A DNA stretch of 64,000 nt, taken from positions 1 to 64,000 of the forward strand of contig CAVOID010000015.1 of the NCBI GenBank assembly GCA_963695875.1, written 5' to 3'. The DNA is from an uncultured delta proteobacterium (GTDB lineage: Bacteria; Desulfobacterota; Syntrophia; Syntrophales; UBA2185). The position numbers were made by a program, and so were the translations under genes. Positions 21,126 through 57,381 of this stretch are shown piece by piece (within the stretch, counting starts at the first letter, position 1; each line of letters opens with the position of its first letter). The notes under the pieces are model-generated. The model saw only the letters and a list, made by a program, of their open reading frames with translations, did no database searches and was not told the origin of the DNA.

Positions 21126-21423
21126 CAGTAATTTTATCTTACTATTATTTTACTAAATATTTAATAATAATATAACTTCCATTAGACCTTGGAACGTGTA
21201 TAACAATATAGTCAGAATATGTGCTTTGCAATATTTTAGATGATAAAAGTGTGACTTTCTCAACCCTAACGCGGCGGTGTTAGCGGCCCAAGTTCAGTGT
21301 TTTTTAATCCATTCAAGAAGGCAATCCATAAAGAGGAAATACATAATAATAGATATCTAATATTATAAATGGGCTTGAAAATATTCAGGAGGGACATAAG
21401 ATGAAAACGATGTGCAAAGTAGC
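21030..21423 (+). repeat. copy A of a ~400 bp inverted paralogous repeat (LuxR 3' end, intergenic region and next start)
   Basis: Aligns by eye with the reverse complement of 41619-42018, including a 54 bp identical core. Confidence 0.9.
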
Positions 21424-24800: not shown

Positions 24801-25006
24801 CCTGAACCGTCAACCGTGCTTTTTTTGGTTTCGGTTTAATGTCGGGTTGAGTAGGGATCAGAAGAAAGTATAAGAAGTAATGTTGGCAGACGTCAAAAGA
24901 AAGTGTAGAAAGTTAGAATAATTCATTGTGTCGGAATGGCCCCCATGAGCTTTTTTGTTTTCGTGGGGGAAATTTTCACTATCAATATTTGAGAGGTCGG
25001 AAAAAA

Positions 25007-28000
25007 ATGGCGACACAACGACATCACTCGTGCCTTGTATCTTTGATCACGGTTTTCCTTGTTTGCGTCCTTTTTCTGGGTGTGGCCTCCGTTGCGGTTG
25101 CGGCGGGGGATGGAGTAAGACTGGACGGCAGCCTCGGTCAGACCCCGGGTATTGTGGGCGGGGGCCAAGTAAACGGCACCCCAACTACTTACCTGATTAC
25201 CGACACCCTGGGAAAGAAAGCCGGCGGCAATCTATTCTACAGCTTCGGCAGCTTCAACATTTACACGGGAGAGAGTGCCACCTTTCACAGCCCAAATAGC
25301 ACCAGTTATAACAATATCATCAGTCGCGTGACCGGGGGGAGTCCGTCCAGCATCGATGGACTCCTCAGGTCGACGATTGAAGGAGCAAATCTCTACCTGA
25401 TGAACCCGAGCGGCGTCATGTTCGGCCCCAACGCGAGCCTCGATGTGAAGGGGAGCTTCCACGTGAGCACGGCGGACTATCTCAAGTTCAGTGACGGGGG
25501 TGTTTTTTACGCCGACCCCGCGAAGAGCAGCGTGCTCTCCGTGGCGGAACCGCAGGCATTCGGGTTCCTCAGCGCAAATCCGGCCGCCATTTCCCTGGAC
25601 CGATCGGTCCTCACGGTACCGGACGGGCAGACACTATCGATTATTGGGGGAGATATTAACGTTCAAAATGATCCCACATCTCCTACATATTATGGAGCGA
25701 CATATTATACTCTCTCCGCACCGGGGGGGAGGATAAACCTCGTCAGCGTCGCCTCACCGGGTGAAGTCAACCTGAGCACACTGGATATTGGTTCTTTTAC
25801 AAAACTGGGGAATATCACATTCTCAAACGGAGCCAATGTGAACGTTTCCAGCAGCGATGGAACGACACCAGCAGGATCCGTCGTCATAAGGGGTGGCCAA
25901 ATCCTCTTTCAAGGTTCCGCTATCGATGCGACGGGAAACCCGGGTGGCTCGATCGATATTAAGGGAGAGACCCTTCAACTGGATAATTCTTCTTTCAATA
26001 TATCCACCTATGGCGATGCGGATCACCCCGGAACGGCATGTCAGATCGAGCTTTCCGGTGATTTTATCATGAAGAATGATTCGTGGATTGACTCTGAGAG
26101 CTTTGGTACGGGGCGCGGGGGAGACATACGCATCAATGCAGGCAATGTCATGCTGGGGGATGACTCTCCCGGCAGCGGTCCATTAGCCGCCTTTGGCAAT
26201 TACGGTTTTATCCAGTCGGGCTACTTTGCTTCGTCAGGTCCGGTGGTATCATATCCATTATTTCAGCCGGCGACGTGGTTGTGAAGAATGGTTTCTATAT
26301 CGCCGCAATGACAGCCGGTGAAGGGAATGCCGGCAATATTACCATCCAAGCCGGCAACAATTTCGTCATGAAAAACGAGTCTTACATCGATTCCTCGACT
26401 TGGGGCACAGGGCGCGGAGGATACATACAAATAACTGCGAGGAATATAACGCTCGGCGATGATGCCCCCGGAATACCACTCTTGGATACTTTCGATCCCT
26501 TTAACCCTTACGGCAGCATCCGTTCGTGGTCTAATCCATCATCAGGCCCAAGCGGTGATATATCTATTACAGCAGGTAATCTCATAGTTAAGAACGGTTT
26601 TTATATCGGCACCGCGGCGCTGAATCAGGCGAATGCGGGCAATGTCACGGTTCGCGCTGATACTATAAAGTTTCTGGATCAGGGAAACATATTCTCGAAT
26701 GCTTTCGCGTCAGGGACAGGGGGTAATGTCGATGTGTCGGCCCGTGATATCCTGATTTCCGCCACGAATGAAGCAGCAGTGACAAATAGTCAATATATTA
26801 CCGGCATAGGTGCGCAAACCGGTGGCACCTCTAACGGTGGTAAAATAACAGTAAACACGGACAGCCTGCAGCTCCTCGACGGAGGACAGATAAGCACGGT
26901 CCTTCTCGGTTCGGGCCGTGGAGCGGACATTGAGATTACGGCGAAGAATATCCTGATTTCGGGATTTGTTCTTGATCCTGCCTTATCCCCCGTGCCGTAT
27001 GGATTATCAGGGATAGATGCGCGTGTGGTTGGCGCGGCGACAACCGGTGGTATCGGAGGGAACATTGCCGTCACCGCAGGCAATCTGAACATAGCGAATG
27101 GAGGGGTTATCCGTACGAACCTCTTTGAAGATGCCCCTGGCACAGCCGGCAATATCACCGTCAATGCGGGAGCAATAAATATCAGCAGCGGCGGCCAGAT
27201 CTATGCGGATTCCTTCCGGGGAACAGGCGATTCGGGAGACCTTAATATTACCGCAAACAGCATGAGCATCTCCGGCTTCGGGGGTTCGCAGGCTCCCTAT
27301 CCCGTTCCCGACTTTACGGGACTTTCGACCAAAACGAATGCAGGGAAAGGCGGCACGATTAATTTAACCCTCACTGGCGATCTCTCGATAACAAACAAAG
27401 GATCGATCAGCGCCGATACGCAGGGGACAGGTTCAGGCGGTGCCATCAATATACGCGCGCAAAATGTGATGCTTACCGATCAGAGCATTATCAGCAGTTC
27501 AAGCTCCGGGACAGGGCCAGGCGGAGTGGTTAATATATCGACTGTCGGTGATCTCTCTGCAACAAACTACGGAACGATCAGTGCCGCTGCAAGCGGGGAC
27601 GGTGTGGGCGGTGACATAAATATCAAGGCGCAAAACTTACGCCTCACCGATCAGGGCACTATCAGTAGTTCCAGCTCCGGAATCGGCAACGCCGGAAATG
27701 TAAATATCACCGCCGCTGATTCTATACTGCTGAGAAACAGCTCCATTACCACAGAAGCCATGAAAGCGGACGGGGGTAACATCCAGATAAGCGCCTCATT
27801 CGAGGTGAGCCTCTTTGACAGTAAGATCACAGCGAGTGTGGGCGGAGGACCTCAGACAACCGGAGGAAACATCACCATTGACCCACAGTTTGTCATTTTG
27901 AAAAACAGCCAGATTATCGCCAATGCCTTTGAAGGCAGAGGAGGCAACATACTGATCAATACAGGTGTATTCCTTGCAGATCCGGATAGTGTAGTGGATG

Positions 28001-28227
28001 CTTCGTCCGCCCTGGGCATTAATGGCACGGTTGATATTCGAGCGCCCATCACCAATGTCAGCGGGCTTTTGAATCCATTATCCGCTGATTTTGTCAGCGC
28101 TACGGCACTGCTTCGAGAGCGATGCATTGCCAGGATCCAGGGGGGCAAATACAGTAGTTTCGTAGTAGGCAGTCGTGATGGGCTACCCATTGAACCGGGC
28201 AATCTCATGCCTGGATTTCTGCACTAA
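25007..28227 (+). CDS. TpsA-type filamentous haemagglutinin-family exoprotein (frameshift near 26245-26280)
   Basis: TPS domain (GGNLFYSF, NIISRVTGG, NPSGVMFGPNASLDV), GxGGxIxI beta-helix repeats and the conserved C-terminus IIANAFEGRGGNI...RC...SSFVVGSRDGLP. Confidence 0.9.
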
Positions 28228-28317
28228 TTGCTCCCGGCTATTTAAATCAATAAAACCAATAGCTGGGGAATCAGTACCGATAATCAAGATAAAAGGTTTG
28301 AATCCGGCAGCGAGCGT

Positions 28318-28404
28318 ATTCCCCGTAGCTTGCTGCGGGGTAAGCGAGCGAATGGGGAACATCATTATAGTCTCAAGAAGTCAGCATCCGACATTAGAAT
28401 TATA
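28318..28404. repeat. palindromic intergenic repeat (CCCCGTAGCTTGCTGCGGGG)
   Basis: Shares the hairpin, TTCGCTCG and ATAATTCTAAT motifs with 39501-39600. Confidence 0.55.
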
Positions 28405-28424
28405 CCGGCTAGGGGATAACTACT

Positions 28425-30239
28425 ATGAAGGCAGAGAGTTTGCTTCGCCATTGGATAAAGAAAGTCCCACTTCCTGAGATGATCAGAGATCTTTGGCATC
28501 ACAGCTCACGGGGTACTTACTTCGCATTGCGCACCTTCCTGGTCTTTCTGGTATTGATCTCTCTTATCACTTCTGCTTATGGCCAGGTGCTGCCCCGTCT
28601 CGATCCCACAGGCCGATCAGGAGATAGGCGTCCCGAGCCTCTTGAGGAAGAACTCCTAACCCCTCCTCCGACGGTGACGCTTCCTGCTCCACCTGGTCCC
28701 GCGAAGGAACAGGCGGTACCGCTTCTCAAGAGTGTATTTGTACGTAAGATAGTTGTAACGGGAAGCACAGTCTTCAAGGCAGACGAGATCGCCAGGGTCA
28801 CCGCTCCTTATGAAAACCGGAATGTGACAATGGAAGATCTGGAGTCTCTTCGCCGGGCTTTGACACTCCTATATGTGAACAAGGGTTATATTAATTCCGG
28901 CGCCATCATTCCGGATCAGAAGGTGGTTGATGGTGTGATTACCTTTCAGATTATTGAAGGTAAGCTCACGCACATAGACGTGGAGGGGAACAAGTGGTTT
29001 GGTGAGGCTTTTCTCAGGGATAGGATAGCTCTGGGCGCAGGAGCTCCCGTCAATATCAGTCCTTTGCAGAACCGTTTACAGATACTGCAGCAGGATCAGA
29101 GGATACAGCGTATTCATGCGGAGCTGAGACCCGGCGCCACACCCGGAGAGAGTGAGTTGAAGGTGAAGGTAGAGGAAAAACCACCATTTTATGCATGGCT
29201 CGCATTTAACAACTACCAGCCACCGTCGGTTGGTGCTGAAAGGGGACTCCTCACACTTGCTCACCAGAACCTTACCGGCCATGGAGATATCCTGAGTTTA
29301 ACATACGGACGTTCGGAAGGTCTCAGTCCCCAGCTTGACACCTGGTATGCGATCCCCATCAATGTTTACGATACAACACTGCTTTTAAGATACAGGATAA
29401 ACGACTTTGACGTTGTTGACAAGGAGTTTGGACCACTGGACATTTCGAGTAAATCGGAAATCTATGAACTTACCCTGCGTCAGCCTATCTACCGGACACT
29501 CAACCAGGAATTCGCCCTCGCCCTTACGTTAGAGCATGAGTACAACAAGACCTATCTGTCCGGAGAACCTTTTTCATTTGCTCCGGGAGTGCAAGATGGG
29601 CGCGAGGTAGTGATTCCAGTGCGGTTTTCACAGGAATGGACATACCGTACGCAGCGGCAGGTCATCGCGGCACGATCCCGTTTCTCCTATGGTCTGCACA
29701 CTGAGGATACGACAATAAATAATAATAAAGACGTCCCGGACGGAAGATTTTTTGCGTGGCTGGGACAGTTTCAATGGGCTCGAATCCTGGGATTCTGGGA
29801 TACGCAGTTGCTCTTCCGGGCAGATATACAGCGTTCCAATGATTCTCTTCTACCCCTCGAGCAGATTACCATCGGCGGGAGATACAGCGTAAGGGGCTAT
29901 AGGGAGAACTTGCTGGTCCTTGATCAAGCCTTTATTGCCTCCCTGGAAGCCCGGATCCCCATTATACAGAATAAGCGCTGGGCGGACTATATTCAATTGT
30001 GCCCTTTTTATGATTACGGCAGGGGGACAAACAAGGATTTTCCAACCCCCGATCCGGTAGATATTTCCAGCGTCGGCCTGGGCCTCAGGTGGGCTGCACC
30101 CTTGATAAAATCACCTTTTGAGCTGAGGTCCGAACTTGAAGTATACTGGGGGTATGCCCTGAGAAAGATCGATCTGCCGTATGACGATCCCCAGGATGCC
30201 GGGATTCACTTTCAAATCGCCATCACAGGTTTCTTCTAA
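28425..30239 (+). CDS. TpsB ShlB/FhaC/HecB-family outer-membrane transporter
   Basis: POTRA domain (YVNKGYINSGA), IGGRYSVRGY motif, C-terminal Phe; start uncertain. Confidence 0.9.
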   Translation: MKAESLLRHWIKKVPLPEMIRDLWHHSSRGTYFALRTFLVFLVLISLITSAYGQVLPRLDPTGRSGDRRPEPLEEELLTPPPTVTLPAPPGPAKEQAVPLLKSVFVRKIVVTGSTVFKADEIARVTAPYENRNVTMEDLESLRRALTLLYVNKGYINSGAIIPDQKVVDGVITFQIIEGKLTHIDVEGNKWFGEAFLRDRIALGAGAPVNISPLQNRLQILQQDQRIQRIHAELRPGATPGESELKVKVEEKPPFYAWLAFNNYQPPSVGAERGLLTLAHQNLTGHGDILSLTYGRSEGLSPQLDTWYAIPINVYDTTLLLRYRINDFDVVDKEFGPLDISSKSEIYELTLRQPIYRTLNQEFALALTLEHEYNKTYLSGEPFSFAPGVQDGREVVIPVRFSQEWTYRTQRQVIAARSRFSYGLHTEDTTINNNKDVPDGRFFAWLGQFQWARILGFWDTQLLFRADIQRSNDSLLPLEQITIGGRYSVRGYRENLLVLDQAFIASLEARIPIIQNKRWADYIQLCPFYDYGRGTNKDFPTPDPVDISSVGLGLRWAAPLIKSPFELRSELEVYWGYALRKIDLPYDDPQDAGIHFQIAITGFF

Positions 30240-30273
30240 GCAGGAGAATGAAATCTGAATTAGGGGAATTGTT

Positions 30274-32686
30274 ATGAAAATGAATAAAACCTTTAAAAGA
30301 TGCAGGGTCTCTTTCCGAAGGTTCATTCCTTTATCAGCTTTCTTATGTCTTTTCATGTTGGTTCCCGCTTTTGGAAGTCTCTTTATTGGTACTGCCTTTT
30401 CATCGGAGGAATCGCCGGTTGTAAAGAATCCGGGTCTGAGTCCGAAGACATCAGGTTCGTCTGAAGGCCAATCGCCCGGAAAATATATAGACCAGGGAGT
30501 CCTTTCGTTTGATCGGGGCGCCTTTGATGATGCCATTGTAAACTTCGAAGCTGCCATACGTTTGTGTGAGCAGGATACTAACAAGGTCAAGCAGTGCGAG
30601 GCACTAATAAGGCTGTCTCAGGCCAGTCATTTTACCGGCCAATACAAGAAAGCACTGCAAAGCTTGGAAAAGGCCATGACCATTGCAAGAGAATTGAATG
30701 ACGGACATCAAATTGCCGCTATCTTCGGTTCCATGGGAAATGTCTATATCGGAATGGGTAATGGTAATTTGGCTTTAGAAAATTTGAATCAGGGACTCCT
30801 TATCGCAAAAGAATCAGGATATGTCAGATGTGACAGCTGTCATTCTGAACAATTTTGGGAACCTGTACGTTTCGCAGAACAAATATGATGACGCACTCAA
30901 TGCATATCGGGAAAGCGCTCAGCAAGCGAAGAAAGCGAAGAACATTTCGCTTGCAGTCCAGGCTGATATCAATGGGGCGACGGCCGCATTGAGAGGCGGT
31001 AAATATGCCGATGCCCGGAAGCAACTCGATAAGGCGGTGGGTCAACTTCGCAGTCTCGAAGATTCCTATGCCAAGGCTTACAGCCTCATCAACGCAGGCA
31101 TTGTATACTCTGATCTTCGTGTGTATTATCCTGACCAAAAGCAGGTTCTTTTAAAGCAAGCTTACACTGCAATCAATGAAGCCCTTACTGTGGCCCAAAA
31201 GATAAACGACCAGAGAACAGTATCATATGCATACGGCTATCTCGGAAAACTGTATGAAGATGAACGTCAATATGAGGAGGCCCTCGAATTAACCAGACGG
31301 GCAATATTTGCGGCCCAACAGAAAAATGCAAACGAGGCTCTGTATAGATGGCACTGGCAGAGCGGACGGATTCTCGCCCATCTGGGTAACATAGATGAAG
31401 CAATTGTATCTTACAGAAATGCGATACATGACCTGCAGGCTATCCGGGAGGAATTTGCTTCCTGCTATGCCAGTCCTGAATCGTCCTACCAAAAAACCGC
31501 AAGTGTCGTCAGTTTTGAAATGGTGAAATTGCTCCTCGAGCGTGCCTCCGTGCTCCAGAAAGGGGAGGCTGTCGAGCCTTATCTGGTCGAAGCCCGTGAG
31601 GCTTTAGAAATCTTGAAGGTGTTTGAGTTGCGGGAGTACTTCAAAGACGATTGCGTGGATGCCGCCCGATTTGTTGAGAAAAAACTGGATGTAGTTTCTG
31701 AGAAGGCCGTGGTAATTTATCCGATTCTGTTAGATGATCATGTGGAACTCCTGGTAAGCTTTTCAGGACGCCTCAAAAGATTTACACTCCCTGTGGGAGC
31801 AGTTGCCTTAACCAACGAGATCAGGGAATTCCGCAGAAAGCTCGAAAAACGAACCACAGGAGAGTACCTGCCCCATGCCCAGAAGCTTTATGACTGGATC
31901 ATCCGACCTCTCGAAAAAGACCTTAATTCTGTGAAAATTGATGCCGTTGTGTTCGTGCCGGATGGACCTCTCCGGACAATTCCCATGGCTGCGTTACACG
32001 ATGGAAATAAATTTCTAATTAATCGTTACCCGGTTGCTATTACCCCGGGATTAAATCTTACGGATCCGCGCCCCTTCAAACGGGAGAACGCAAAAGTACT
32101 GGCCCTGGGGTTGACCGAACCCAGGCAGGGGTTTCCCGGTCTGCCCTATGTATCCGGTGAGCTCAAGGCTATTAAACAACTTTATGGAGGGCAGTTCCTG
32201 CTGAATGGGGAGTTCCGTGTGTCTAATGTGGAAAAAGAGCTGAAGAAGGAACCCTTTAGTATTGTCCATATAGCCTCGCACGGCCATTTTGGGGGGGACG
32301 TGGGTGATACATTCCTCCTGGCATTTGATGAAAAGTTCACTATAGATCGCTTCGGAGAGTATGTGGGTCTTTTCAAATTCCGTGATGAGCCCCTGGATTT
32401 ACTCACATTGAGCGCATGTGAAACCGCCGCAGGGGATGACCGGGCAGCACTGGGCCTGGCTGGGGTTGCCATCCGGGCAGGCGCCAGGAGCGCTCTTGCA
32501 ACACTTTGGCATGTCAATGATCCCGCATCTTATGAGTTGATCGTAGAATTTTACAAACAGCTACAGCATCCGTCTGTCTCGAGAGCCGCGGCACTCCAGG
32601 CAGCACAACTCAAACTGCTCGGAGATCTGCGCTACGATCATCCCGGTTACTGGGCGCCTTTCATTTTGATCAACAACTGGTTGTGA
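30274..32686 (+). CDS. exported TPR-CHAT (caspase-like HetF family) protease (frameshift near 30825)
   Basis: N-terminal signal/TM segment, TPR repeats, FVPDGPL, catalytic HIASHG and LSACETA, and the HPGYWAPFILINNWL end. Confidence 0.9.
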
Positions 32687-32701
32687 GGTTGCCTGCAAGG
32701 T

Positions 32702-34642
32702 ATGGCACAGTTTCTCAAATTCATCCAGAAACCCATCATCGTCAAATTGATGGGAGGTCTCCTCGTTTTTCTGCTTATCGTGGGTTTGCGAAACAGCGGA
32801 CATCTCGAATTTCTGGAACTCGCAGCGTATGACTGGTTCATACGCATGGAGCCGAAACTCTCCAGCGGAGATCCCAGGATAACGCTCATAGAGATTTCCG
32901 AAAAAGACATTCATGCCCATGGCCGCTGGCCCCTGACGGATGAGGCCCTCGCCAAAGCCATGAATATTCTCGTCAAGGATAATCCCCGTGCCGTTGGCCT
33001 GGACATTTATCGCGATATTCTCGTGCCTCCAGGAAGCGAAGAATTAAACGCCATCTTCGTCGAAAATCCTCAAATCATCGGGGTGATGACATTCGGCGAG
33101 AAGGGTGTGCGGCCGCCGGCGATCATCAGCAATACGGAGCAAGTGGGGTTTAACGACATACTTGTCGATCCCGGAGGTATTGTGAGGAGAGCGCTTATCT
33201 TTCTGGATGACGGTGAGAATGTGTATAATTCTTTTGCCCTCCGGCTCGCTTCTCTTTATCTTCATGCGGAAGGAATTGCTCTACAGGCTGATCCGGAAAA
33301 TCCGCAATACATCCGTCTGAAGGATACTACGATAAAACCTTTTGAGGCAAATGACGGGGGCTATATTAAGGCGGATGCTAGAGGTTACCAGTTTCTTCTG
33401 GACTTCGAGAACGCGGGCTTGCCTTTTCGGTCCTATTCTTTCTCCAAGCTGTTATCCGGTGAAGTTCCAGCGGAAGCGATCGCCGATAAAATAATCCTAA
33501 TCGGCGTCAGCGCCCAGAGCGTCAAAGACTTTTTTTATACACCGCTGAGCAAAGGTTTCGAAGAGGTCCAGCAGGTTCCCGGTGTTGTTCTGCACGGACA
33601 CATTATAAGCCAACTGCTGAGGTTCGCCCTCGACGGAACTTCACCGCTAAAGACATTGCCGGAAACGCAGAAGCTCATCTGGATCTTGCTCTGGAGCCTC
33701 ACAGGAGGTTTGATCGGACTCCGCATACGCTCCGTATGGCGCTTCTCTATGTTGATCTTAGGCGGCTTGGTGCTTCTTTGTCTTGCGTCATATTTTGCCT
33801 TTCTTGCCCGCTGGTGGATTCCCCTGGTGCCTCCAGCTCTATCATTCTTCATATCCGCTGTTGTCGTCACGGCCTACATGTCAAGCCATGAAAAGAAAGA
33901 GCGGGCCCTCCTGATGCAGCTCTTTTCGAGACATGTGTCAAAAGAAATTGCGGAGATCATCTGGCAGCAGAAGGATCAGTTTCTGAACGACGGCCGTCCC
34001 CGATCCCAGAAAATGACGGCTACCGTTTTTTTCTCCGATTTAAAGGGTTTTACAACGATGTCCGAAAAGATGGACCCGCAGGAGCTTATCGACTGGCTGA
34101 ACGCCTATATGGAACCTATGACGCGCTTGATTATGGAGCACGGCGGGGTCATCGATGACTATGCCGGGGATGGCATCAAGGCGAACTTCGGTGTGCCGCT
34201 GCCGCGGAAAAATGAAGATGAGGTGCGCTCGGACGCCATGAATGCAATTAACTGCGCTCTTGCCATGGAGAAAGAAATGTGCCGCCTCAATGCCTTCTGG
34301 AGCCAAAAGGGGCTTCCCGCCATGGGGACGCGGGTCGGCATCTTTACCGGGACTGTTGTGGCGGGCCTTCTGGGAAGCTCAAAGCGATTAAAGTACACCA
34401 CCGTCGGCGATACCGTTAACATTGCCGCGCGGCTGGAAAGTTATGACAAAGAAGTGTGCAAAGATGCCCTCTGCCGCATCCTCATCGGTGAGCCGACTTT
34501 GCGCCATGTCAACGGCCAGTTTAAGACAGAAAGAATAGGAGAGGTCAGCCTGAAAGGAAAGGATGAAAGAATAATCGTTCACCGGGTGCTGGGTGATGAA
34601 TCTCCCGGCTCTCAAGCAATATCAAAGGAGGGAATATCATGA
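32702..34642 (+). CDS. CHASE2-domain membrane class III nucleotide cyclase
   Basis: CHASE2 motifs (RWPL, GLDIYRD, PGVVLH), three TM helices, FSDLKGFT, GDG and YTTVGDTVNIAARLES. Confidence 0.92.
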   Translation: MAQFLKFIQKPIIVKLMGGLLVFLLIVGLRNSGHLEFLELAAYDWFIRMEPKLSSGDPRITLIEISEKDIHAHGRWPLTDEALAKAMNILVKDNPRAVGLDIYRDILVPPGSEELNAIFVENPQIIGVMTFGEKGVRPPAIISNTEQVGFNDILVDPGGIVRRALIFLDDGENVYNSFALRLASLYLHAEGIALQADPENPQYIRLKDTTIKPFEANDGGYIKADARGYQFLLDFENAGLPFRSYSFSKLLSGEVPAEAIADKIILIGVSAQSVKDFFYTPLSKGFEEVQQVPGVVLHGHIISQLLRFALDGTSPLKTLPETQKLIWILLWSLTGGLIGLRIRSVWRFSMLILGGLVLLCLASYFAFLARWWIPLVPPALSFFISAVVVTAYMSSHEKKERALLMQLFSRHVSKEIAEIIWQQKDQFLNDGRPRSQKMTATVFFSDLKGFTTMSEKMDPQELIDWLNAYMEPMTRLIMEHGGVIDDYAGDGIKANFGVPLPRKNEDEVRSDAMNAINCALAMEKEMCRLNAFWSQKGLPAMGTRVGIFTGTVVAGLLGSSKRLKYTTVGDTVNIAARLESYDKEVCKDALCRILIGEPTLRHVNGQFKTERIGEVSLKGKDERIIVHRVLGDESPGSQAISKEGIS

Positions 34643-35392
34643 ATAACCTGAAACTAATAGTAATCGTCGGGCTTATTGCGGCGCTGCCGTTTCTCACCGG
34701 CGCAGCAGATGAGGGTAAGACAAAGCGGTCTGATGAAAATACCCAAACAGATCAAAAAGCGAAGCAGGTTACGACCGTGGGCAAGCCCGTATACAAACCG
34801 CCTCTCCGCGGATCGCCAGCCGGGCGTGTGGGGGGTGGAACGCGCGGGATGACAGAAAGGGAGTCCTTTTCTCTACAGGTCCTGGCGCCGGACCACATTG
34901 GTTTGACGATCCAGGATCAACCCTGTCTCTACTGGTACGTATCGAAACCAATCCCTTATCCTGTTGAACTGACCGTTATTGAAAGAAATGCAGTGAAACC
35001 ACTTCTTGAAAAGATCATCAAGGGTCCTGATAAGGGTGGCATCCAATTCATTCGTTTAGCCGATTATGCTGTGCATCTGCGTCGGAATGTCCCATACAAA
35101 TGGTTTGTGACCCTTGTGACCGATTCCAATCACCGTTCCAAAGATATTCTGGCAGGTGGCATAATAACACTGGTTGAACCGCCGCCATCGCTATTCGGCC
35201 AAACTCAAGGCGGCAGACAGCGGCAAAGCGCCCTATATTTACGCCGAGGAGGGGCTATGGTATGATGCGCTGGGAGCGATATCAGGGATGATCGATGCTT
35301 CACCGAATAATGTGGATCTCCGCAAACAGCGCGCCTCCCTTTTAGAACAGGTAGGTTTAAGTGAAGTTGCAGAATTTGAGAATCGGCAATAA
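34639..35392 (+). CDS. DUF928 family exported protein (frameshift near 35195)
   Basis: YKPP-RG-P-GRVGGGTRG, GLT...P-LYWY and YAEEGLWYDAL...LLEQVGL motifs. Confidence 0.85.
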
Positions 35393-35571: not shown

Positions 35572-36498
35572 ATGAACGAGAACGAGAGCGGGAAAAAGGG
35601 ACTTACGGGGAGCAGAGTTTTCGGGCAATTGCCCAAAGAGAAGTGGGATGAGCTCACTAGGGCTATGGAGAACCAGGTGGTAGCACGGCGTACGATCATC
35701 TTCAGGCAGGGGGATCCAGGGGACAAGTTTTACATTATCCATTCAGGGAAAGTGAGGGTGTTCAGGAAGGACGCTGATGGATTGGAGACGGACTTGTCTT
35801 TGCTGGGAGCGGGTGAAAGCTTTGGTGAGATGGCCCTGCTGACAGGTGAGACGAGATCAGCGAACGTGGAGGCGGTAGAAGAGACCCGCCTAAAGGTGCT
35901 TTCCAAAGAGCAATTTGAGCTTATTCTGAAGGACTTTCCCCATATTTCCCTGGCCTTTGTGAAGCAGATGTCGGGATGGCTTCTGAGGGATGAGAAGACC
36001 ATTGAGAAGGAAGCGCAACAACTTTACCGGGCACATCACATATCCTGGTTTGATTTTCTGCTGGTGATCGGGGTGAGTGTAATTCTAGCCCTCGTGTTCA
36101 ATAAGTCTAACCCGAACGGGATACCCCTGTTTCCGAAGTTTCCTGACAGGAAAGCGATTTCCGAGATCAGCGCTGCTCAGGCGATGGAAGAGGTGAAGAA
36201 GGGCGAAGCGCTCATCGTGGATGCTGGTCCTGAAGCCTTCTATGAAAAGAAACATATCCAGGGGGCGATCAGCATACCGCTCTCTCTTTTTGATATAGTG
36301 TATACGATGGCCTTTGGAGGGAATGAGAAGGGGAAAAAGGTGATTGTGTACGGAGGAACATTCAGCAAGCTCTATGATTGGGAGCTGGCGGACAAGCTCC
36401 TTCTTCGGGGGCATAAGGATGTGAAGGTGTTGGAGGGGGGGATGGCGACCTGGGAAAAAAAGGGCTATCCGGTGGAGGAGGAGAAAGGGAAGGAATGA
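35572..36498 (+). CDS. cNMP-binding domain - TM helix - rhodanese-like fusion protein
   Basis: IFRQGDPGD and FGEMALL...RSANV (cNMP domain), a hydrophobic helix, then HIQGAISIP and [12 protein letters not shown]. The active-site position reads YGG, not YC. Confidence 0.85.
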
Positions 36499-36998
36499 TC
36501 CATACATTTCTAAAACAGATTGTGACGAGTCCGTATCTGGCGCTGATTCTGAGGGTGTTCGTGGGCTATATCTTTCTGTACGCTAGCGTGAGCAAGATAC
36601 CGCACCCTGCGCAGTTTGCGGAAGCGACGGCAGCCTATCAACTGATCCCGTACTGGTTTCTGAATGTGGGGGCTATACTATTGCCGTGGATCGAGTTTGT
36701 GAGCGGGCTGTTTCTGATCATCGGGCTGAGGACGAGGGCGGCGGCAACCCTCATCGGTCTGATGTTGATCATGTTCACCGTGATGGTCCTGACCAACATG
36801 TACTGGGGAGCGTCTATTACGTGTGGGTGTTATGATACGGTGGGGGAGCCTATTGGGTGGAAGAAGGTCAGTGAGGACATATTACTGCTCCTCTTCACGA
36901 TACAGATTTACTTCTGTGACAGGTTGTTCATCTTCCGCAGGGGGGGCTTAATGCCCAGCATAAAGGGCATGGTCGCTACTCTGACAGGATTGCAATAA
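36495..36998 (+). CDS. MauE/DoxX family membrane protein
   Basis: LILRVFVG...[16 protein letters not shown] and the conserved CGC motif. Confidence 0.85.
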
Positions 36999-37006
36999 GG
37001 TGGCCT

Positions 37007-37372
37007 ATGATGCACACATCAAGATTTCAGGATTATGGATTGATGGTTGGTCTTTGCGTGCTTCTGATGCTTCTGCTCTCATGTGAGTCCAAGGATAAAT
37101 ACGCGGGAGTATACAAAGCGGTGGGGAATGAGTCGGTGAAGCAGGGGGAGACCGTCTTGGAATTGAAGGGGAATGGGGATGGTCTGTGGAGAGTGGCCTC
37201 TGATGAGGTAGCGGGAACCTTCGTAGAGGTCCCCTTTGTGTGGTACATCAAGCAGGGGGAGTTGCGGGTGAACACCAGAGCAGGGGGAGTGATTGTGGGG
37301 AAGATAGGGAAGGACACCATTCAGATGACCCTCCCAGGCTCCAAAGTGATGACCTTCAAGAAGATCCAATAA
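37007..37372 (+). CDS. small lipoprotein of unknown function
   Basis: Lipobox LLSC followed by a beta-rich domain. Confidence 0.7.
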   Translation: MMHTSRFQDYGLMVGLCVLLMLLLSCESKDKYAGVYKAVGNESVKQGETVLELKGNGDGLWRVASDEVAGTFVEVPFVWYIKQGELRVNTRAGGVIVGKIGKDTIQMTLPGSKVMTFKKIQ

Positions 37373-37398
37373 GTCCAGAGGTCGAATCTCGGAAGCAG

Positions 37399-37827
37399 CT
37401 ATCTATTCCCATTGGGTTCGACTGGATACTTCGCTACCTCCCAGGCCCTCCATCCGCCCTTCAATGCGTATATCTTCTTGTATCCTTTCTCCATGAACTG
37501 CAGTGCCGCACGGGCACTGGTCGCTTCATCGTGTCACTTACAATAAAAAACTAATGTTTTCTCTTTTGGATACTTGTTGATCCAGGAGGTAAGATAGCGG
37601 ACGTCCTCGTGAACAGCCCCCTTGATCTTGTTCTTGCTGTTCTCCCAGTCGTGGACCGTCCTCACATCGATAACGATGACATCGGGATTCACAAGCTGCG
37701 CTTTCAGCCCATCAATAGACATCTTCTGCACACTCTCGGGGGTGAGCTCCGTCGCGGCGAAACTAACCGTTCCCGCGAAACCCACCGCAAGCACCATCAA
37801 GGCCAGAAAGAATACTGTTTTTCTCAT
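37399..37827 (-). CDS. exported rhodanese-domain selenoprotein (C-K-U; Sec at the in-frame UGA 37536-37534), 142 aa
   Basis: Reading through the UGA gives HDEATSARAALQFMEKGYKKIYALKGGWRAWEVAKYPVEP and completes the rhodanese fold. A SECIS-like hairpin lies at 37501-37519. Confidence 0.9.
37501..37519 (-). other. putative bacterial SECIS element (CAGUGCC-CGUGC-GGCACUG)
   Basis: 7 bp stem; the loop follows 21 nt after the UGA. Confidence 0.8.
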
Positions 37828-38052
37828 TTATCCCTCCTTTTGCGCCGGTCAATTGTTAAGGGTTACTTCTTAAGTCTCTTCTCATATTTTTTGGAAGGTC
37901 ATTTATGGCTACTGTAAGTAAATCGGCTGGGTTCTTGTCATGCTCAACGGCAACAAATCTTAGTTTCTTTATAAACGTGCTAATCAAGACGAAATGATAC
38001 CACTTTTCAGATAGTCTTGAGCGTGTATTAATCACCCCGCATCGCTTCAAGA

Positions 38053-38364
38053 TTACTGGATGATCTGCGGTTTCCCTTCGATCGGGAATTCTTGCTTGGC
38101 CAGACCCTCTACAATCTTCTCGATACTGGTTTTTGCATCGTCGAATTTTACCGTGACTTCGTGAGTTAATTGGTTCGCATCATATTGCAGCACGCCCGGG
38201 ATTTCCTTCAGGGTAGCACGTACCCATTTAGCCGAGTCCGGTCACTCACATCCGGGAACTACCATTTTGACAATTCTTTCGGCAGCAAAAATGGGTTGTG
38301 ATGCGACGAGCAGGAACATCACACTCAAAAGACAGACGATCAGGGAATGTTTACTCCGCTTCAT
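38053..38364 (-). CDS. exported HMA/MerP-CopZ-like selenoprotein (G-C-E-U; Sec41 at 38244-38242), 103 aa; absent from the ORF track
   Basis: MKRSKHSLIVCLLSVMFLLVASQPIFA signal peptide, AERIVKMVVPGCE-U-PDSAKWVRATLKEIPGV...VTVKFDDAKTSIEKIVEGL HMA pattern, GAGGGG RBS, and a SECIS-like hairpin. Confidence 0.85.
38211..38225 (-). other. putative SECIS element (GGGUA-CGUGC-UACCC)
   Basis: Same loop and 21 nt spacing as in the rhodanese genes, with a different stem sequence. Confidence 0.8.
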
Positions 38365-38983
38365 GGGTATTCCCCTCAATATTTTTGGGTTAGATTATAC
38401 GGATGCCTCTTTCTAAGAGATGGGTCTTCTATACATAGTTTACATTTTTTATTTCTCAAACAAATTGGTTAAATCGGATAGAAGGGTTAAGTGGATAAGA
38501 TATAAATGAACGAATATAATTTTATACTTATGTGAATTTATATAGTGATTCTTCTTCTATGTCAAGCTAATTTTGTCACTAAATATGTCCGGTATAGCTG
38601 TCGATTTCCACGAGTATGCTTGTGAGAGTTTTTCGATGATCGCTGGTAGATATCAGAAGGTCAAGCATTTGTATGAATTTCTCCCCGGTCTCATGATCTC
38701 TAAAAACATAGGGAGAATTCCGTTCTCTAAACTATATGTGCCAACAGAGTAGAAGATTACCGTTAAAAACATTCACTTTCACTGCCCACGTTATGGTACC
38801 TCATAAAAAATAAATCATGCCCCTTCTCTCTTTCAAAAATTACTCTCCGGTGGATGGAAGGATGCTCATATTGGGCAAAAGTCATATCTGGCAAAGATCA
38901 GGACGCATATTTTTTACAGCGAGCAAGGCTCCTCCATGCAGCCGGAAAAAGAAAATGATCAAAGAACCAGATGACCAAATAAC

Positions 38984-39487
38984 CTATTTGGCAGAACGCA
39001 CCGGGAGAACCCGGCTGCTGATGACGTACGACTGGGGATTCCAACTCCGTTCGCCGTACCGGAAATTGAAGACGGCGGCGGCGGAATCGCGCGTCGCCGA
39101 GTTCCATAACCAAAAACAGGTAATATCTATCAACTCCGTTGCGATATGAATATTATAGCTTCGATTGCATGCTCCTGGACGGGATTTACTCGCATCATAC
39201 AGCCCCATCAATTCATCCTGCGTTGGCATCCGCCAGTCCGTATAGCCGCCGCCGCGATAATTCTCGCAATAACTCTTGGCATCCGCCCAGTTTATGTTGC
39301 GTTCATTGTCCTTTGCCGCCCACATTAGGTTCGTCTGTGTGTCCAGGACCGTCCCATCATCATAGGCGATGAAACGACCGTCTCTGGCGATCTCTCCGGC
39401 TGCGGCATATTCTGCAAAAACAAAAGTACCTATATAAAAAACCAACACCATTGCCGCAATGAAAAAGCCCTTTCTCAAGTCAGTCAT
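38984..39487 (-). CDS. exported DUF1566 (Lcl C-terminal) domain protein
   Basis: DGTVLDTQTNLMW, WADAKSYC, GYTDWRMPTQDEL and VLPVR motifs. Confidence 0.85.
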   Translation of the reverse strand: MTDLRKGFFIAAMVLVFYIGTFVFAEYAAAGEIARDGRFIAYDDGTVLDTQTNLMWAAKDNERNINWADAKSYCENYRGGGYTDWRMPTQDELMGLYDASKSRPGACNRSYNIHIATELIDITCFWLWNSATRDSAAAVFNFRYGERSWNPQSYVISSRVLPVRSAK

Positions 39488-39500
39488 ACGTTCACCTCTC

Positions 39501-39600
39501 ATAATTCTAATCTCTAGGGGTTAAATTTCCCTAAGCTTACTTCGCTCGTAAAGGACCCGAACCTTCAGATACCCCGCAGCTTGCTGCCAGGGTAGTTCAT
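39501..39600. repeat. second copy of the palindromic intergenic repeat
   Basis: ATACCCCGCAGCTTGCTGCCAGGGTAG, related to 28318-28404. Confidence 0.55.
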
Positions 39601-39706
39601 TTTGTTTTTTCCACTAACCGCTTGGCTTTCCGGCGTTGCCACAGTATTTCAACGATGTATCCGTAGGCTCCAGCCACTCACAAAAATTGACGGATGATTA
39701 AGACAC

Positions 39707-39738
39707 AAAACCCCGCTCTCGCTTGAGAAACGGGGTTT
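39707..39738 (-). terminator. intrinsic terminator-like hairpin
   Basis: AAACCCCG...CGGGGTTT stem with a T-tract on the minus strand. Confidence 0.5.
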
Positions 39739-40125
39739 CGATAAGCTCTTCATGGCACCACCCTTACAAAAAGGGTTCAGACTAGTTGTTAACCTTTTGA
39801 CGATGCCCTATTTAAATATGATTATTTTTTGCTCTCAATTCTTTGAAAAGTCAAGAGACAAATTTCATTGATAATCATTTGAAAGGATGTATATCTATCA
39901 AAACCACGGGACACTGCCTTCACCCTCAGAATCTATTATCCATGAGACCTAACGATTACCATTGTAAGAATCAATATTTCCCTAACATTAATGGTTAGGA
40001 GGAAGTAGCGGATTATCGCTGTCACCCGAGAGCTGTGCAGATCAATTTGAAAGCGATTATCATGACAAGTCGCTAAGACGAAAAATCAAAAAACCTATTA
40101 CCGAGGTTACAATAAGAAAATTAAT

Positions 40126-40557
40126 TTATTTAGGTTCGATTGGATACCCCGCATCCGTCCAGGCATGAAAACCACGCTTGAGGGCGCTTACCTTTTTAAA
40201 GCCATTGTCCAATAATATCTGTGCCGCACGGGCACTTGTCGCTTCATCGTGTCAGGTACAGTATGTAATGATCTCTTTGTCCCTCGGCAGTTCGTTGCTT
40301 CTGACCTCCAGTTGAACTATGGGAATCCTGATGGCCCCTCTTATCCTGATCTTGCTATCGGCATATTCTCGTCCCGCTCGGACATCAACAATCACTATGT
40401 CCTCACCTTTATCCATCTTAGCCTTCAGTTCCTGCACTGTGATTCTTGGAACTACATCGTCTGCAGATAAAACAACCGATACGATCAGCTGATTCAGTAC
40501 ACCGAAGAGCAGAGAAAGAAAGAGACCCTTTAAAAACCATCTCATCGCCATCCTCAT
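40126..40557 (-). CDS. second exported rhodanese-domain selenoprotein (C-T-U; UGA at 40254-40252), 143 aa
   Basis: Reading through the UGA gives HDEATSARAAQILLDNGFKKVSALKRGFHAWTDAGYPIEPK then TAA. A SECIS-like hairpin lies at 40221-40235. Confidence 0.9.
40221..40235 (-). other. putative SECIS element (GUGCC-CGUGC-GGCAC)
   Basis: 5 bp stem; the loop follows 21 nt after the UGA. Confidence 0.8.
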
Positions 40558-40689
40558 CTCATCCTTCCGGGGTAAAATGCTTCTTAATTGCTGTGTCTAA
40601 AACTTACTGAATAACAAGTCGAGATCCAGACTTTATTATAATGCATTAAGCCAGCTCAAAAATTGGGTGGGTCGTGGGTTGCTTGTTTA

Positions 40690-41175
40690 TTATTCCTTTT
40701 TTACTGAACGGGGGAAACAGCATTCCCAACTTGGCATACCATCTTCCTCGTTGCGAAGTTTCATGGTGAAATCACCCTTGCTTATTTCCGTGGCAATGAT
40801 CGCATTACCATACTTCTTACCCCTTACTTCAACCTTGTCGCCGGCCATAAATTTGATCTTCTGATTTTCAATGAACCACTTGGGTCCCATATAGACGACA
40901 TACTTGTTATTCTGATCCGTAATGAATCTCATCTGCAGACCGTCTTTCACACCTTTCATCGGCTCAACTCTCGTTACTTTACCGGGCTCCACCACTATTG
41001 CTTCCATTCCCGTAAATGATGTCTCGGCATCAAGTCCGGGAACTCCCAAAGTCCATGCACCCCTTGATACAGGGCCCGAGGACTGAGATGCCTGAGCAAA
41101 CAGCTCTGGTGCGAAAGTCATGCTCACCAAGAACATCATTGCAACTACAACCGTCCAACGTGCTACCTTTCTCAT
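40690..41175 (-). CDS. exported OB-fold-like protein with a C-terminal Cys-Cys
   Basis: AGGAGG RBS, signal peptide, VYMGPKWF...GDKVEVRG...LRNEEDGMPSWECC. Confidence 0.7.
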   Translation of the reverse strand: MRKVARWTVVVAMMFLVSMTFAPELFAQASQSSGPVSRGAWTLGVPGLDAETSFTGMEAIVVEPGKVTRVEPMKGVKDGLQMRFITDQNNKYVVYMGPKWFIENQKIKFMAGDKVEVRGKKYGNAIIATEISKGDFTMKLRNEEDGMPSWECCFPRSVKKE

Positions 41176-41474
41176 ACTTTCCTCCTTGGTATCATTGTTT
41201 TGACCCACCCGATTTCGAGCTTAACGATTTAAAAAATGAACCTTCCATACCTCGTGACATCATCTTGTATCCCCTATGGGGTGATGATCCTGTCCAACAC
41301 TCTGTTCTTTTTTGCGCAATCTGCAGGGATGGCTCCGGTACAAATAATATCTTTTGACTGCTATTAGTGTCAATCTCTAAATGCTGCATCATGCAACAGT
41401 TTATAATCAGGTATAGACTGATTTGTGGCTTCGAAATTCCTGCAGTAATCGCCCAATGTTGCATACAGGAACGG

Positions 41475-41517
41475 AAAAGCCCGAAGCGATTGAGTTGGCA
41501 AAATTGGCTTCGGGCTT
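41475..41517 (-). terminator. strong hairpin / intrinsic terminator
   Basis: AAGCCCGAAGC...GCTTCGGGCTT followed by TTTT on the minus strand. Confidence 0.55.
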
Positions 41518-41618
41518 CTCTGGAAACGACCGGCCTCAAAGAAGGAGGAGGCATGAAAACAAAATATATTTTAATTATAAGCCTTTAGAAAGAGTCAGTC
41601 AATCCTTTTTCTATCAGT

Positions 41619-42018
41619 GCTGCTTCGCACATCGTTTTAACCTTATGTCCCTCCTTAATATTTTTAAGCCTGTTTATAATATTAGGTATTTGTTACTATT
41701 ATTATGTATTCCCTGTTTATGGATTGCCTTCCTAAATGGATTAAAAAACACTGAACTTGGGCCGCTAACACCGCCGCGTTAGGGTTGAAGAAGTAATATT
41801 CTTATCATTTAGAATATTGCAGAGTACATTTTCTAGTTATATTGTTATACAGATTCTAAGGTTTAATGGAAGTTATATTATTATTAAATTATAAATAAGA
41901 AAATAGTAAGGCAAAATTACTATTATGACAGGGTCTGCAGGTGGGTTCTGAGATTGACCTTCTGTTCAATTATTCCTAATTTGTCCCTGATGTGACAGCG
42001 ATGCGCACCGACAGCACT
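41619..42018 (-). repeat. copy B of the inverted repeat: LuxR 3' remnant, promoter region and decayed downstream start
   Basis: Encodes SAVGAHRCHIRDKLGIIEQKVNLRTHLQTLS*, compared with SAVSLHRYHIREKLGIIDQKINLRTHLQSLS* in copy A. The downstream ATG is replaced by GTT. Confidence 0.9.
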
Positions 42019-42091
42019 TGCAATCTCCAACACATTTATCATTTGACATTAAAACATTAGAAAATTACACTATAAAAAATCTCAATTTGTT

Positions 42092-56813: not shown

Positions 56814-57036
56814 ATTACCTCCTCCTTTTAATAAATCTTATAAAACTGATATGCCAAATCAAGACTCCAAGGTGAATATCTTAACCCGCAAAAGTCCTGA
56901 TTAATCCTGCTCTTTGCATGCAGGCTCGTCAAACGGAAAATAGACATGCGCATCTCTCATTGAAAATGGACAATTATCTTAAGCCATGTTATATAATTTT
57001 CATCTCTCACCAAAACCAATTACGGAGGTAAAAGCG

Positions 57037-57336
57037 ATGAAAATCAAAATGCCCATAAAGTTTCACGGCAATTATCGGGTGATCATTCGCCAGGGCGATT
57101 GGGAAGCCCGGGAACGATGCCAAAAACTCATCATCAGAGAGATAACACCAGCTGAGAAAGAGCAATACTACAAAGAGATGGATGAAAGAGATATCCCTAC
57201 GCACCAGGTCAATTTTTTTGACTTTGGTTGCCGCCGCATCATAGAGGGCAAACTCACGGTAAACGAAGAAAACAGAGTGGCTTTCGCAGTTGAAGAAAAG
57301 GAGTACGAATTTTCACCCTTCGTCCCCGGAAGATGA
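57037..57336 (+). CDS. hypothetical protein
   Basis: GGAGGT RBS before ATG and a 99 aa open frame. Confidence 0.6.
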   Translation: MKIKMPIKFHGNYRVIIRQGDWEARERCQKLIIREITPAEKEQYYKEMDERDIPTHQVNFFDFGCRRIIEGKLTVNEENRVAFAVEEKEYEFSPFVPGR

Positions 57337-57381
57337 TCCGGCAACATCATAATATATAAAAGAGCCTGGTTATTCTTGCCC

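Follow-up and report, generated by a model that had tools for sequence, protein, structure and literature searches.

Predicted exported Cys-x-Sec rhodaneses and a MerP-like selenoprotein encoded in a region of an uncultured Syntrophales genome

Three minus-strand genes located between positions 37399 and 40557 of a contig from an uncultured bacterium of the order Syntrophales, named here rhd1, hma and rhd2, almost certainly encode genuine selenoproteins, as judged from comparative sequence analysis. In their products, selenocysteine (Sec, U) would be placed two positions after a Cys, in two rhodaneses (rhd1 and rhd2) and in a MerP-like protein with an HMA domain (hma). The DNA analysed, referred to as the window, is a stretch of 64,000 nucleotides (C15:1-64000 of the source genome G000, contig CAVOID010000015.1), and this genome is distributed in 16 contigs with a completeness of 82.6%. 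The explanation that best covers all the observations, which is considered probable, is that these genes encode intact exported selenoproteins that belong to two different modules and have a chalcogen or redox role.

Results

Reading frames interrupted by TGA codons

An in-frame TGA is found in each gene two codons after a Cys codon, with the T of the triplet at positions 37536, 38244 and 40254. The following genes are obtained when TGA is translated as Sec.

37399..37827, minus strand: rhd1, single-domain rhodanese selenoprotein with predicted export, 142 aa, Y-C-K-U-H-D-E, Sec codon 37534-37536.
38053..38364, minus strand: hma, MerP-like HMA selenoprotein with predicted export, 103 aa, P-G-C-E-U-P-D-S, Sec codon 38242-38244.
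40126..40557, minus strand: rhd2, single-domain rhodanese selenoprotein with predicted export, 143 aa, Y-C-T-U-H-D-E, Sec codon 40252-40254.

The frames continue through the TGA codons as YCK-U-HDEATSARAA in rhd1, PGCE-U-PDSAKW in hma and YCT-U-HDEATSARAA in rhd2, and the Pfam matches to the Rhodanese (1.3e-14 in rhd1 and 1.2e-15 in rhd2) and HMA (2e-9) domains span these codons. With translation table 11, the open reading frames (ORFs) of rhd1 and rhd2 are cut to 37534..37827 (97 aa) and 40252..40557 (101 aa), and hma is split into pieces of 45 aa (38242..38379) and 46 aa (38053..38193). The ATG start codon of hma at 38364, with a GAGGGG box upstream, yields the 103-aa protein, and a TTG at 38379 would yield 108 aa (38053..38379). 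The N-termini of the three proteins, read by eye, show a basic segment followed by a hydrophobic stretch and an A-x-A-like site, with putative cleavage at VSFA/A, IFA/A and LSA/D, a pattern that points to export. A preliminary description of this DNA, made from the nucleotide sequence, had reported the three TGA codons, the completion of the domains beyond them, the signal peptides, an ORF track that cuts two of the genes and misses hma, and the presence nearby of an exported Cys-Cys protein, a MauE protein and a further rhodanese; all these features have been found in place.

Selenocysteine machinery and conservation of the TGA codons

The components for Sec incorporation are present in the genome, all of them above curated or gathering cut-offs: selA (513 bits in a profile search), selB (the SelB wing domain within a 552-aa frame), selC (tRNA-Sec, 76 bits, anticodon TCA) and selD (395 bits, C5:126708-127637). 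The selD gene has one in-frame TGA and is probably Sec-containing itself. TGA is also the normal stop codon of the neighbouring gene for a cyclic nucleotide (cNMP)-binding rhodanese-homology protein, where it overlaps the MauE start, and so the code is not reassigned genome-wide. Two paralogues on contig C11 of the same genome have TGA at the matching column, one rhd2-like (57003-57431, 83% identical) and one hma-like (100387-100710, 69% identical).

Relatives were sampled in 201 genomes of the same order. Matches to rhd1 were found in 97 of these genomes at E <= 1e-5, and the best 54 rows all contain an in-frame TGA, with no Cys form among them; the name given to the rhodanese family in NCBIfam (NF041203), which includes '(seleno)protein', implies that Cys forms exist. 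In 19 of 19 non-self rhodanese loci TGA was aligned with the query Sec, 4 of them being U-x-U. The hma query matched in 126 of the 201 genomes at E <= 1e-3, and TGA was counted here in 142 of 150 rows among the matches listed. The column of 24 non-self HMA loci was occupied by C-x-U in 21, C-x-x-U in one and a Cys form (C-A-C) in another, the remaining one being unclear. Cys forms at the Sec column were P0134 (C-A-C), P0135 (C-G-C) and L042, and L097 has C-x-x-C. At all loci examined, the protein remains conserved beyond the TGA. Since relatives keep the TGA column, the three in-frame codons are far beyond chance.

Trp occupies the Sec column in 7 of 10 HMA homologues fetched from databases. 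However, locus L116 is identical letter for letter to the database entry P0121 except for a TGA at the 'Trp' codon, and the database Trp is thus regarded as a gene-caller artefact. Metagenome contigs were also scanned with an exact pattern in which TGA or TGG was permitted at the Sec codon. Among the 31 matches obtained, 27 had TGA and 26 of these were full-length HMA homologues (TGG in 0 of 26); the other 4 had TGG, and none of them translates to an HMA protein, so they are unrelated sequences. The three codons of the window are spanned by contigs of 4 runs from 4 studies (peat, wetland and freshwater sediment), and none of 41 differences, among those listed, falls on them, which shows that the TGA form is present and not that variants are absent. 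Synonymous changes were found in metagenome contigs 4-16 nt upstream of the hma TGA. The preliminary description had singled out the sel genes, the residue at this column in homologues and the accuracy of the assembled codons as the matters to be checked, and the results on all three agree with Sec.

SECIS-like hairpins downstream of the UGA codons

A short hairpin resembling a selenocysteine insertion sequence (SECIS) is present in each gene. In the bacterial SECIS consensus, a stem-loop follows the UGA at a short distance and has a G in its apical loop.

37501..37519, minus strand: rhd1 hairpin, stem GUGCC/GGCAC, extendable to 7 bp, loop CGUGC, starting 16 nt past the UGA.
38211..38225, minus strand: hma hairpin, stem GGGUA/UACCC, loop CGUGC, starting 16 nt past the UGA.
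40221..40235, minus strand: rhd2 hairpin, stem GUGCC/GGCAC, loop CGUGC, starting 16 nt past the UGA.

Covariation was analysed in alignments of 21 rhodanese and 22 HMA sequences, with 500 shuffles each. The rhodanese helix has 85.0% of the cells paired and two-sided changes at 4 pairs, and the HMA helix 92.9% and 3 pairs, with an A-U to C-G switch of the stem in 9 of 22 sequences; in both families 0 of 500 shuffles reached the observed covariation. The helix is found at identical columns and offset in the two families, and pairing falls to 22-52% when the partner is shifted by 1-3 columns. In the loop of 5 nt, the second position is always G (21/21 rhodanese and 22/22 HMA sequences). Both sides of some compensatory changes are synonymous (AGU...GCA to AGC...GCG), an argument that selection acts on the RNA. 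No relevant match was obtained in an Rfam E-value scan of positions 37300-41600, which returned one chance snoRNA row (20.9 bits). In a promoter/terminator scan the counts were not above those of shuffles, and the sole notable 'terminator' was the rhd2 SECIS hairpin.

The rhodaneses rhd1 and rhd2

There is hardly any doubt about the families to which the three proteins are assigned. Both rhodaneses exceed the cut-off of 115 bits of NF041203 (rhodanese_LYCAU, 'rhodanese-related (seleno)protein'), with 160.9 bits for rhd1 and 123.7 for rhd2, and the family motif [LF/IT]-Y-C-x-U is present at the active-site loop (F-Y-C-K-U in rhd1 and T-Y-C-T-U in rhd2). They are new members of an already catalogued, uncharacterised family, from which they are structurally no different (single domain with a C-x-U loop); their partners (the MamS/MamX Cys-Cys and ResA-like proteins described below) and the fusion contexts are not described in the review passages available. 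Sec aligns with the catalytic Cys of the rhodanese PDB 6mxv_A, with an extra Cys at -2. The loop, U-H-D-E, is acidic and its Glu at +3 is conserved, in contrast to the cationic active-site loop of thiosulfate rhodaneses.

The small single-domain architecture is shared with Sud (PDB 1qxn), PspE and GlpE, Sud and PspE being periplasmic, and the window rhodanese gives weak sequence matches to 1qxn (1.6e-4) and 1gmx (8e-3). However, those proteins have one catalytic Cys, without Sec and without Cys at -2. Sud is the polysulfide-sulfur transferase of Wolinella. The U-x-U variant seen here in relatives figures in the available part of a 2007 report (PMC1976440).

Two rhd1-like genes, in genomes G185 and G167, have as neighbours genes for Cu-type P1B ATPases (605 and 612 bits to TIGR01511) and a YtkA-like gene. 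Other relatives are fusions. In L089 (6868-8487, G062:C9), a rhodanese_LYCAU domain (155 bits) with U-x-U and predicted export is joined to an octahaem cytochrome c that contains 8 CxxCH motifs, the cytochrome part being HDH/HAO-like with 84.6 bits, below the model cut-off. Rhodanese-cytochrome fusions occur likewise in L027, L030 and L031, as frames of 539-560 aa with two TGAs, from a sister family of the order. A VTT/DedA membrane domain is fused to a Y-C-S-U rhodanese in L149 (3901-4848, G007:C1), and VTT/DedA-rhodanese-type frames of about 325-347 aa are found in about 10 further genomes.

The MerP-like HMA protein

The hma protein matches Pfam HMA (PF00403) with 38.1 bits, over the gathering threshold of 24.8, and reaches no NCBIfam cut-off. 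Its top model is MerP (TIGR02052, 41.6 bits against a cut-off of 92.55), and twelve relatives score 25-61.5 bits to this model, also without reaching any NCBIfam cut-off. In the AlphaFold2 (AF2) model, with a predicted local distance difference test (pLDDT) value of 86, the order of elements is beta-alpha-beta-beta-alpha-beta (E29-35, H42-54, E58-63, E69-75, H81-90, E96-101), and C39-E40-U41 would lie in the beta1-alpha1 loop directly before the helix 42-54. The best Foldseek matches of the fold are MerP 1osd and 1afi, with target-normalised template modelling (TM) scores of 0.82-0.88.

Like MerP, hma has one HMA domain, of about 70 residues, preceded by a signal peptide, its export being predicted. 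The loops differ, with G-C-x-U-x-x-S/T in hma and G-M-x-C-x-x-C in MerP. In the alignment with 1osd (33 bits), Sec corresponds to the first Cys of GMTCxxC and the Cys at -2 replaces Met, and the second metal-loop Cys is Ser in hma (G-C-E-U-P-D-S) and Thr in most relatives. In more distant relatives the Cys that replaces Met is retained and Sec comes one residue later (G-C-x-x-U), one of them having C-x-x-C there. No mer operon context is found here: MerT gave no match in the 82.6%-complete genome, in which the best MerA match has 345 bits against a cut-off of 454.

Selenoproteins of the HMA type are already known according to the portions of the literature available. The catalogued ones (NF041115, the NF045683 MerT/CopZ fusion and a P-type ATPase UxxC form) likewise have Sec in the metal loop; the Sec of hma differs in being paired with the Cys at the Met position instead of the canonical second Cys. 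The score of hma to NF041115 (UxxU metal-binding (seleno)protein) is 21.7 bits against 95, its motif being C-x-U instead of U-x-x-U, and NF045683 is matched with at most 36.7 bits against 375. The literature search found no description of a C-x-U HMA selenoprotein, and the available passages of a 2026 selenoprotein review contain no HMA C-x-U entry (PMC13188914). The Global Ocean Sampling (GOS) list includes, in the part available, two sequences of a selenoprotein called 'Mercuric transport protein MerP' (PMC2398784), and hma may belong to this same family, whose row states no motif. At E <= 1e-8, hma matches in about 104 of the 201 genomes inside the order and in 2 of about 290 sampled genomes of the phylum beyond it, both with TGA. 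By its sequence, hma is classified as a member of an unmodelled, largely order-restricted MerP-like subfamily with G-C-x-U.

The HMA-CxU genes are found in at least three unrelated contexts, with differing neighbours at 18 other HMA loci. They follow cydAB and an Lpd-like flavoprotein gene at 8 loci of one genus, and they are located among PFOR, DUF362 and ferredoxin genes at 5 loci of another family. The flavoprotein beside these paralogues was considered as a MerA candidate and rejected, as it scores Lpd-like. Two small adjacent ORFs (clusters CL10 and CL5) are situated just downstream of HMA paralogues in L059, L060, L062, L067, L068 and L071; CL5 matches only AhpC/TSA positions 52-123, and the arrangement resembles a peroxiredoxin gene interrupted by an in-frame stop, which may encode a further selenoprotein. 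In L049 (1063-1803, G062:C1), one frame of 247 aa encodes an HMA C-Q-U domain and, after it, a region with weak similarity to thioredoxins (Thioredoxin_9, 19.9 bits, below cut-off, without CxxC).

Two recurrent gene modules

The genes that accompany the three selenoprotein genes in the window are the following.

40690..41208, minus strand: protein with predicted export, probably of the MamS/MamX family, with an oligonucleotide/oligosaccharide-binding (OB) fold and a Cys-Cys motif, C-terminal W-E-C-C-F-P, likely start ATG 41175 (about 161 aa).
38984..39502, minus strand: Lcl_C (DUF1566-like) protein with predicted export, between rhd2 and hma, Pfam Lcl_C 5.1e-19.
35572..36498, plus strand: cNMP-binding domain, membrane helix and rhodanese-homology domain (Pfam), first gene of a three-gene operon converging on rhd1.
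36495..36998, plus strand: MauE/DoxX membrane protein with a C-G-C motif, start overlapping the preceding stop, Pfam MauE 3.8e-26.
37007..37372, plus strand: small protein without family, putatively a lipoprotein (LLLSC lipobox recognised by eye), encoded third in the operon.

The window is very likely a mosaic of two recurrent modules and not one operon. The first module would consist, with the same high probability, of the MamS/MamX OB-fold Cys-Cys protein and, after it, a CxU rhodanese, to which a ResA-like thioredoxin is usually added. The MamS/MamX Cys-Cys gene immediately precedes the rhodanese gene at 11 of 11 rhd2-type loci and is absent at 9 other rhodanese loci fetched, and a convergent ResA/TlpA-like gene follows the rhodanese in 9 of the 11. 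The ResA-like protein has a signal anchor and W-C-P-E-C, and scores 112.9 bits to the ResA model (cut-off 170). The copy on C11 of the same genome is an intact triad of MamS/MamX, rhodanese and ResA-like genes, and genes of CcdA/DsbD type are also present in the genome.

The Cys-Cys protein is placed in MamS_MamX clusters of the ESM Atlas with a score of 0.98, and a precomputed PF26390 (MamS_MamX) assignment is found on all 120 of its homologues among the matches listed; 853 representatives match at E <= 1e-3. Its AF2 model (pLDDT 82.5) has an OB-fold, for which VIA-align gave generic OB-fold matches only (best Z 8.3; CcmE, YgiW and ModG 6.4-6.9) and Foldseek gave nothing at E <= 0.001. The C-terminal W-[EQ]-C-C-x-P is limited to the close subfamily of this protein, and 11 of 13 MamS/MamX copies inspected have the CC motif.

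A degraded second copy of the region formed by rhd2 and the DNA upstream of the Cys-Cys gene was detected at C5:210081-211374, the window positions concerned being 40174-40375 and 41200-41610. Its upstream DNA is 92% identical, and residues 1-61 and 128-143 of rhd2 are kept, the Sec-bearing middle being lost. A joint skipping the 200 nt that the C5 copy lacks (40174 to 40375) is found in contigs of 3 of the 4 metagenome runs.

The second module, which is also highly probable, is formed by the HMA-CxU gene followed by a CxU rhodanese gene, facing the cNMP-rhodanese/MauE/lipoprotein operon. This convergent arrangement appears again in G120:C13 and G180:C6, with 79-91% identity, and these are the only 2 other genomes among the 201 in which hma and rhd1 face cNMP-rhodanese/MauE. 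Full-length homologues of cNMP-rhodanese occur in only 4 of the 201, and the trio is kept in G120, G180 and G093. The window gene is the single MauE match in the genome. The cNMP-rhodanese protein reads Y-G-G-T-F-S where the active-site Cys is expected in the alignment to rhd2, so it has no catalytic Cys. The Lcl_C gene again adjoins these modules in G180:C6 and G120:C65. The methylmalonyl-CoA mutase is 93-94% identical in both genera compared and does not discriminate for or against lateral transfer.

Other features of the window

A repeated element of about 250 nt is located in the rhd2/Lcl_C intergenic region (39647-39920), with copies at C10:13415-13682 (85%) and C7:36312-36529 (90%). It has no Rfam match, and in metagenome contigs its depth is raised several-fold, with many loose ends at 39703-39744. 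Another repeat, of about 400 nt and 84% identity, has copies at 41611-42019 and 21030-21431, one upstream of a hybrid histidine kinase gene and the other near PAS-LuxR/RCC1 genes. An upstream plus-strand block (24926-35265) contains genes for a TPS-domain exoprotein, a 650-aa ORF without family, a ShlB/FhaC-type transporter, a TPR-CHAT protein, a CHASE2-adenylate/guanylate cyclase and a DUF928 protein.

Discussion

The redox pair, the substrate and the partners of the Cys-x-Sec proteins are inferred, and a chalcogen/redox relay is put forward tentatively as their mechanism. UGA is almost certainly read as Sec, by means of the short hairpin 16 nt downstream, and Sec occupies the canonical reactive position in both folds, that of the catalytic Cys in the rhodaneses and that of the first Cys of the GMxCxxC loop in the HMA protein. 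In the proposed relay, the Cys/Sec pair would constitute a periplasmic redox-active dichalcogenide; it could otherwise be a bidentate Se/S site. Sec would attack a sulfane-sulfur (or selenium) donor, the adduct would be resolved or taken over by the nearby Cys or by the Cys-Cys tail of the OB-fold partner, and the selenenylsulfide would be re-reduced via the ResA-like protein fed by CcdA/DsbD, via MauE, or via a multihaem cytochrome c as in the fused relatives. The HMA protein may carry this ligand too, or else a soft metal.

This mechanism is favoured because the most constant partners are a thioredoxin-fold reductant, plus cytochromes in the fusions, because the rhodanese fold is a carrier of sulfur or selenium, because the Cys at -2 resembles a resolving residue, and because a periplasmic Sec/Cys reductase of polysulfide and selenite has experimental precedent. 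According to the available passages on MccSep/ExtKL of Geobacter sulfurreducens (PMC13510729), the periplasmic Sec enzyme MccSep has been shown to reduce polysulfide and selenite, and it also pairs Sec with Cys in the periplasm. It has no homology to the window proteins; relatives of rhd1 and rhd2 are fused to multihaem cytochrome c, whereas the window rhodaneses have no haem domain.

Several observations weigh against an explanation based on intact selenoproteins with a chalcogen or redox role. The nearest relatives of the HMA protein in sequence and fold, MerP and CopZ, are on the metal side, two rhd1-like genes adjoin Cu-type ATPase and YtkA-like genes, and the rhodanese loop is acidic with a conserved Glu. 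Vicinal Cys-Cys motifs are typical of mercury proteins, and the MamS/MamX copies beside hma-rhd1 in G120 and G180 read W-E-S-S (L057 3679-4197 and L058 7355-7870). The contexts of HMA-CxU genes vary by lineage, and the neighbourhood offers no consistent functional hint. The window rhd2 has no ResA-like neighbour, the 250-nt repeated element following instead, and the covariation counts come from related sequences inside coding DNA.

Some of these points favour the handling of soft metals, a possible, if unlikely, alternative in which the HMA-CxU protein, the CxU rhodanese and the Cys-Cys tail would bind and pass Hg(II), Cu(I), Cd or similar metals in the periplasm, the Se/S ligands serving for sequestration or hand-over to transporters. 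In addition to the ATPase neighbours in G185 and G167 and the loop Glu, MerP and the CopZ/CopA domains are closest to the HMA protein, and there are known examples of periplasmic metal chaperones with an OB-fold and of Cys-Cys motifs for mercury. Many transport-type selenoproteins have been implicated in metal resistance, according to the available passages of the 2026 review (PMC13188914). However, neither MerT nor a MerA over the cut-off was found in the genome at its 82.6% completeness, the canonical GMxCxxC is not kept, the strongest partners of rhd2 are the thioredoxin-fold reductant and, in fusions, multihaem cytochromes, and the flavoprotein near the HMA paralogues is not MerA.

A chalcogen/redox relay could also be imagined in a wider form, which is doubtful, as an undescribed extracytoplasmic Se-dependent system of Syntrophales-type anaerobes composed of the MamS/MamX Cys-Cys carrier, the C-x-U rhodaneses and the MerP-like C-x-U protein. 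One ligand (sulfane sulfur, a selenium atom or a thiophilic metal) would be passed between Se/S pairs, recharged by the ResA-like reductant, MauE or multihaem cytochromes. If this were true, the HMA proteins with G-C-x(1,2)-U would represent a selenoprotein family that is new and a hallmark of the order.

The preliminary description had proposed that the three selenoproteins, together with the Cys-Cys protein and the MauE/rhodanese pair, may form an undescribed periplasmic system for selenol-based handling of metals, sulfur or selenium, and had suggested a test of neighbourhood conservation in the order. Conservation extends only to sub-modules. The Cys-Cys protein, hma, rhd1, lipoprotein, MauE and cNMP-rhodanese genes are found together in G120:C13 and G180:C6 (70-91% identity), hma-rhd1 being beside the trio in 3 of the 4 sampled genomes that hold it and MauE being single-copy and sited here. 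However, the three selenoprotein genes do not travel together. The block of G180 lacks rhd2, of which a 32-residue fragment is present in that of G120, the same-genus genomes G149 and G186 carry the HMA gene without these neighbours, as happens with differing neighbours at the 18 other HMA loci, and the trio of G093 has neither hma nor rhd1 within about 7 kb. Moreover, the gaps of 225-620 nt between the three selenoprotein genes hold a repeated element. A single co-inherited system is therefore considered improbable, and the term 'undescribed' is not supported either; both rhodaneses belong to NF041203.

The acquisition or recycling of selenium, with selenite or selenide caught as Se-S or Se-Se adducts and passed inward for the selenoproteome, is a very improbable role. 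Rhodaneses are able to carry selenium, and DedA proteins have a known link with the uptake of selenite; VTT/DedA fusions of the rhodanese family occur in relatives, and selD is itself probably a selenoprotein gene here. The activity of MccSep on selenite would also be in line with this role, according to the source text available (PMC13510729). Nevertheless, selD, selA and selB are on other contigs, unlinked to these genes. Finally, pseudogenes, assembly errors or a TGA read as Trp or another residue, to which the database Trp forms might have pointed, can practically be dismissed in view of the TGA in the DNA behind those forms, the conservation past the codon, the TGA stops of neighbouring genes and the metagenome contigs.

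A new kind of system is not established by these results, which add two new members to a known family and one new variant to the HMA-type selenoproteins. They are less novel than was first proposed, and they provide useful new context for an uncharacterised family. With regard to annotation, over half of the genomes sampled in the order gave a match to the MerP-like selenoprotein subfamily, whose genes standard gene callers overlook or divide; the subfamily fits no NCBIfam model, and databases show it in truncated or spurious-Trp forms. The rhodanese_LYCAU family gains reproducible partners in the OB-fold Cys-Cys protein, the ResA-like thioredoxin and the octahaem-cytochrome and VTT/DedA fusions, which make its function as a periplasmic redox or carrier relay a testable hypothesis. 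One Cys-x-Sec arrangement, with Sec at the reactive position, is encoded side by side in two unrelated folds, and this constitutes a natural experiment on why Sec replaces Cys.

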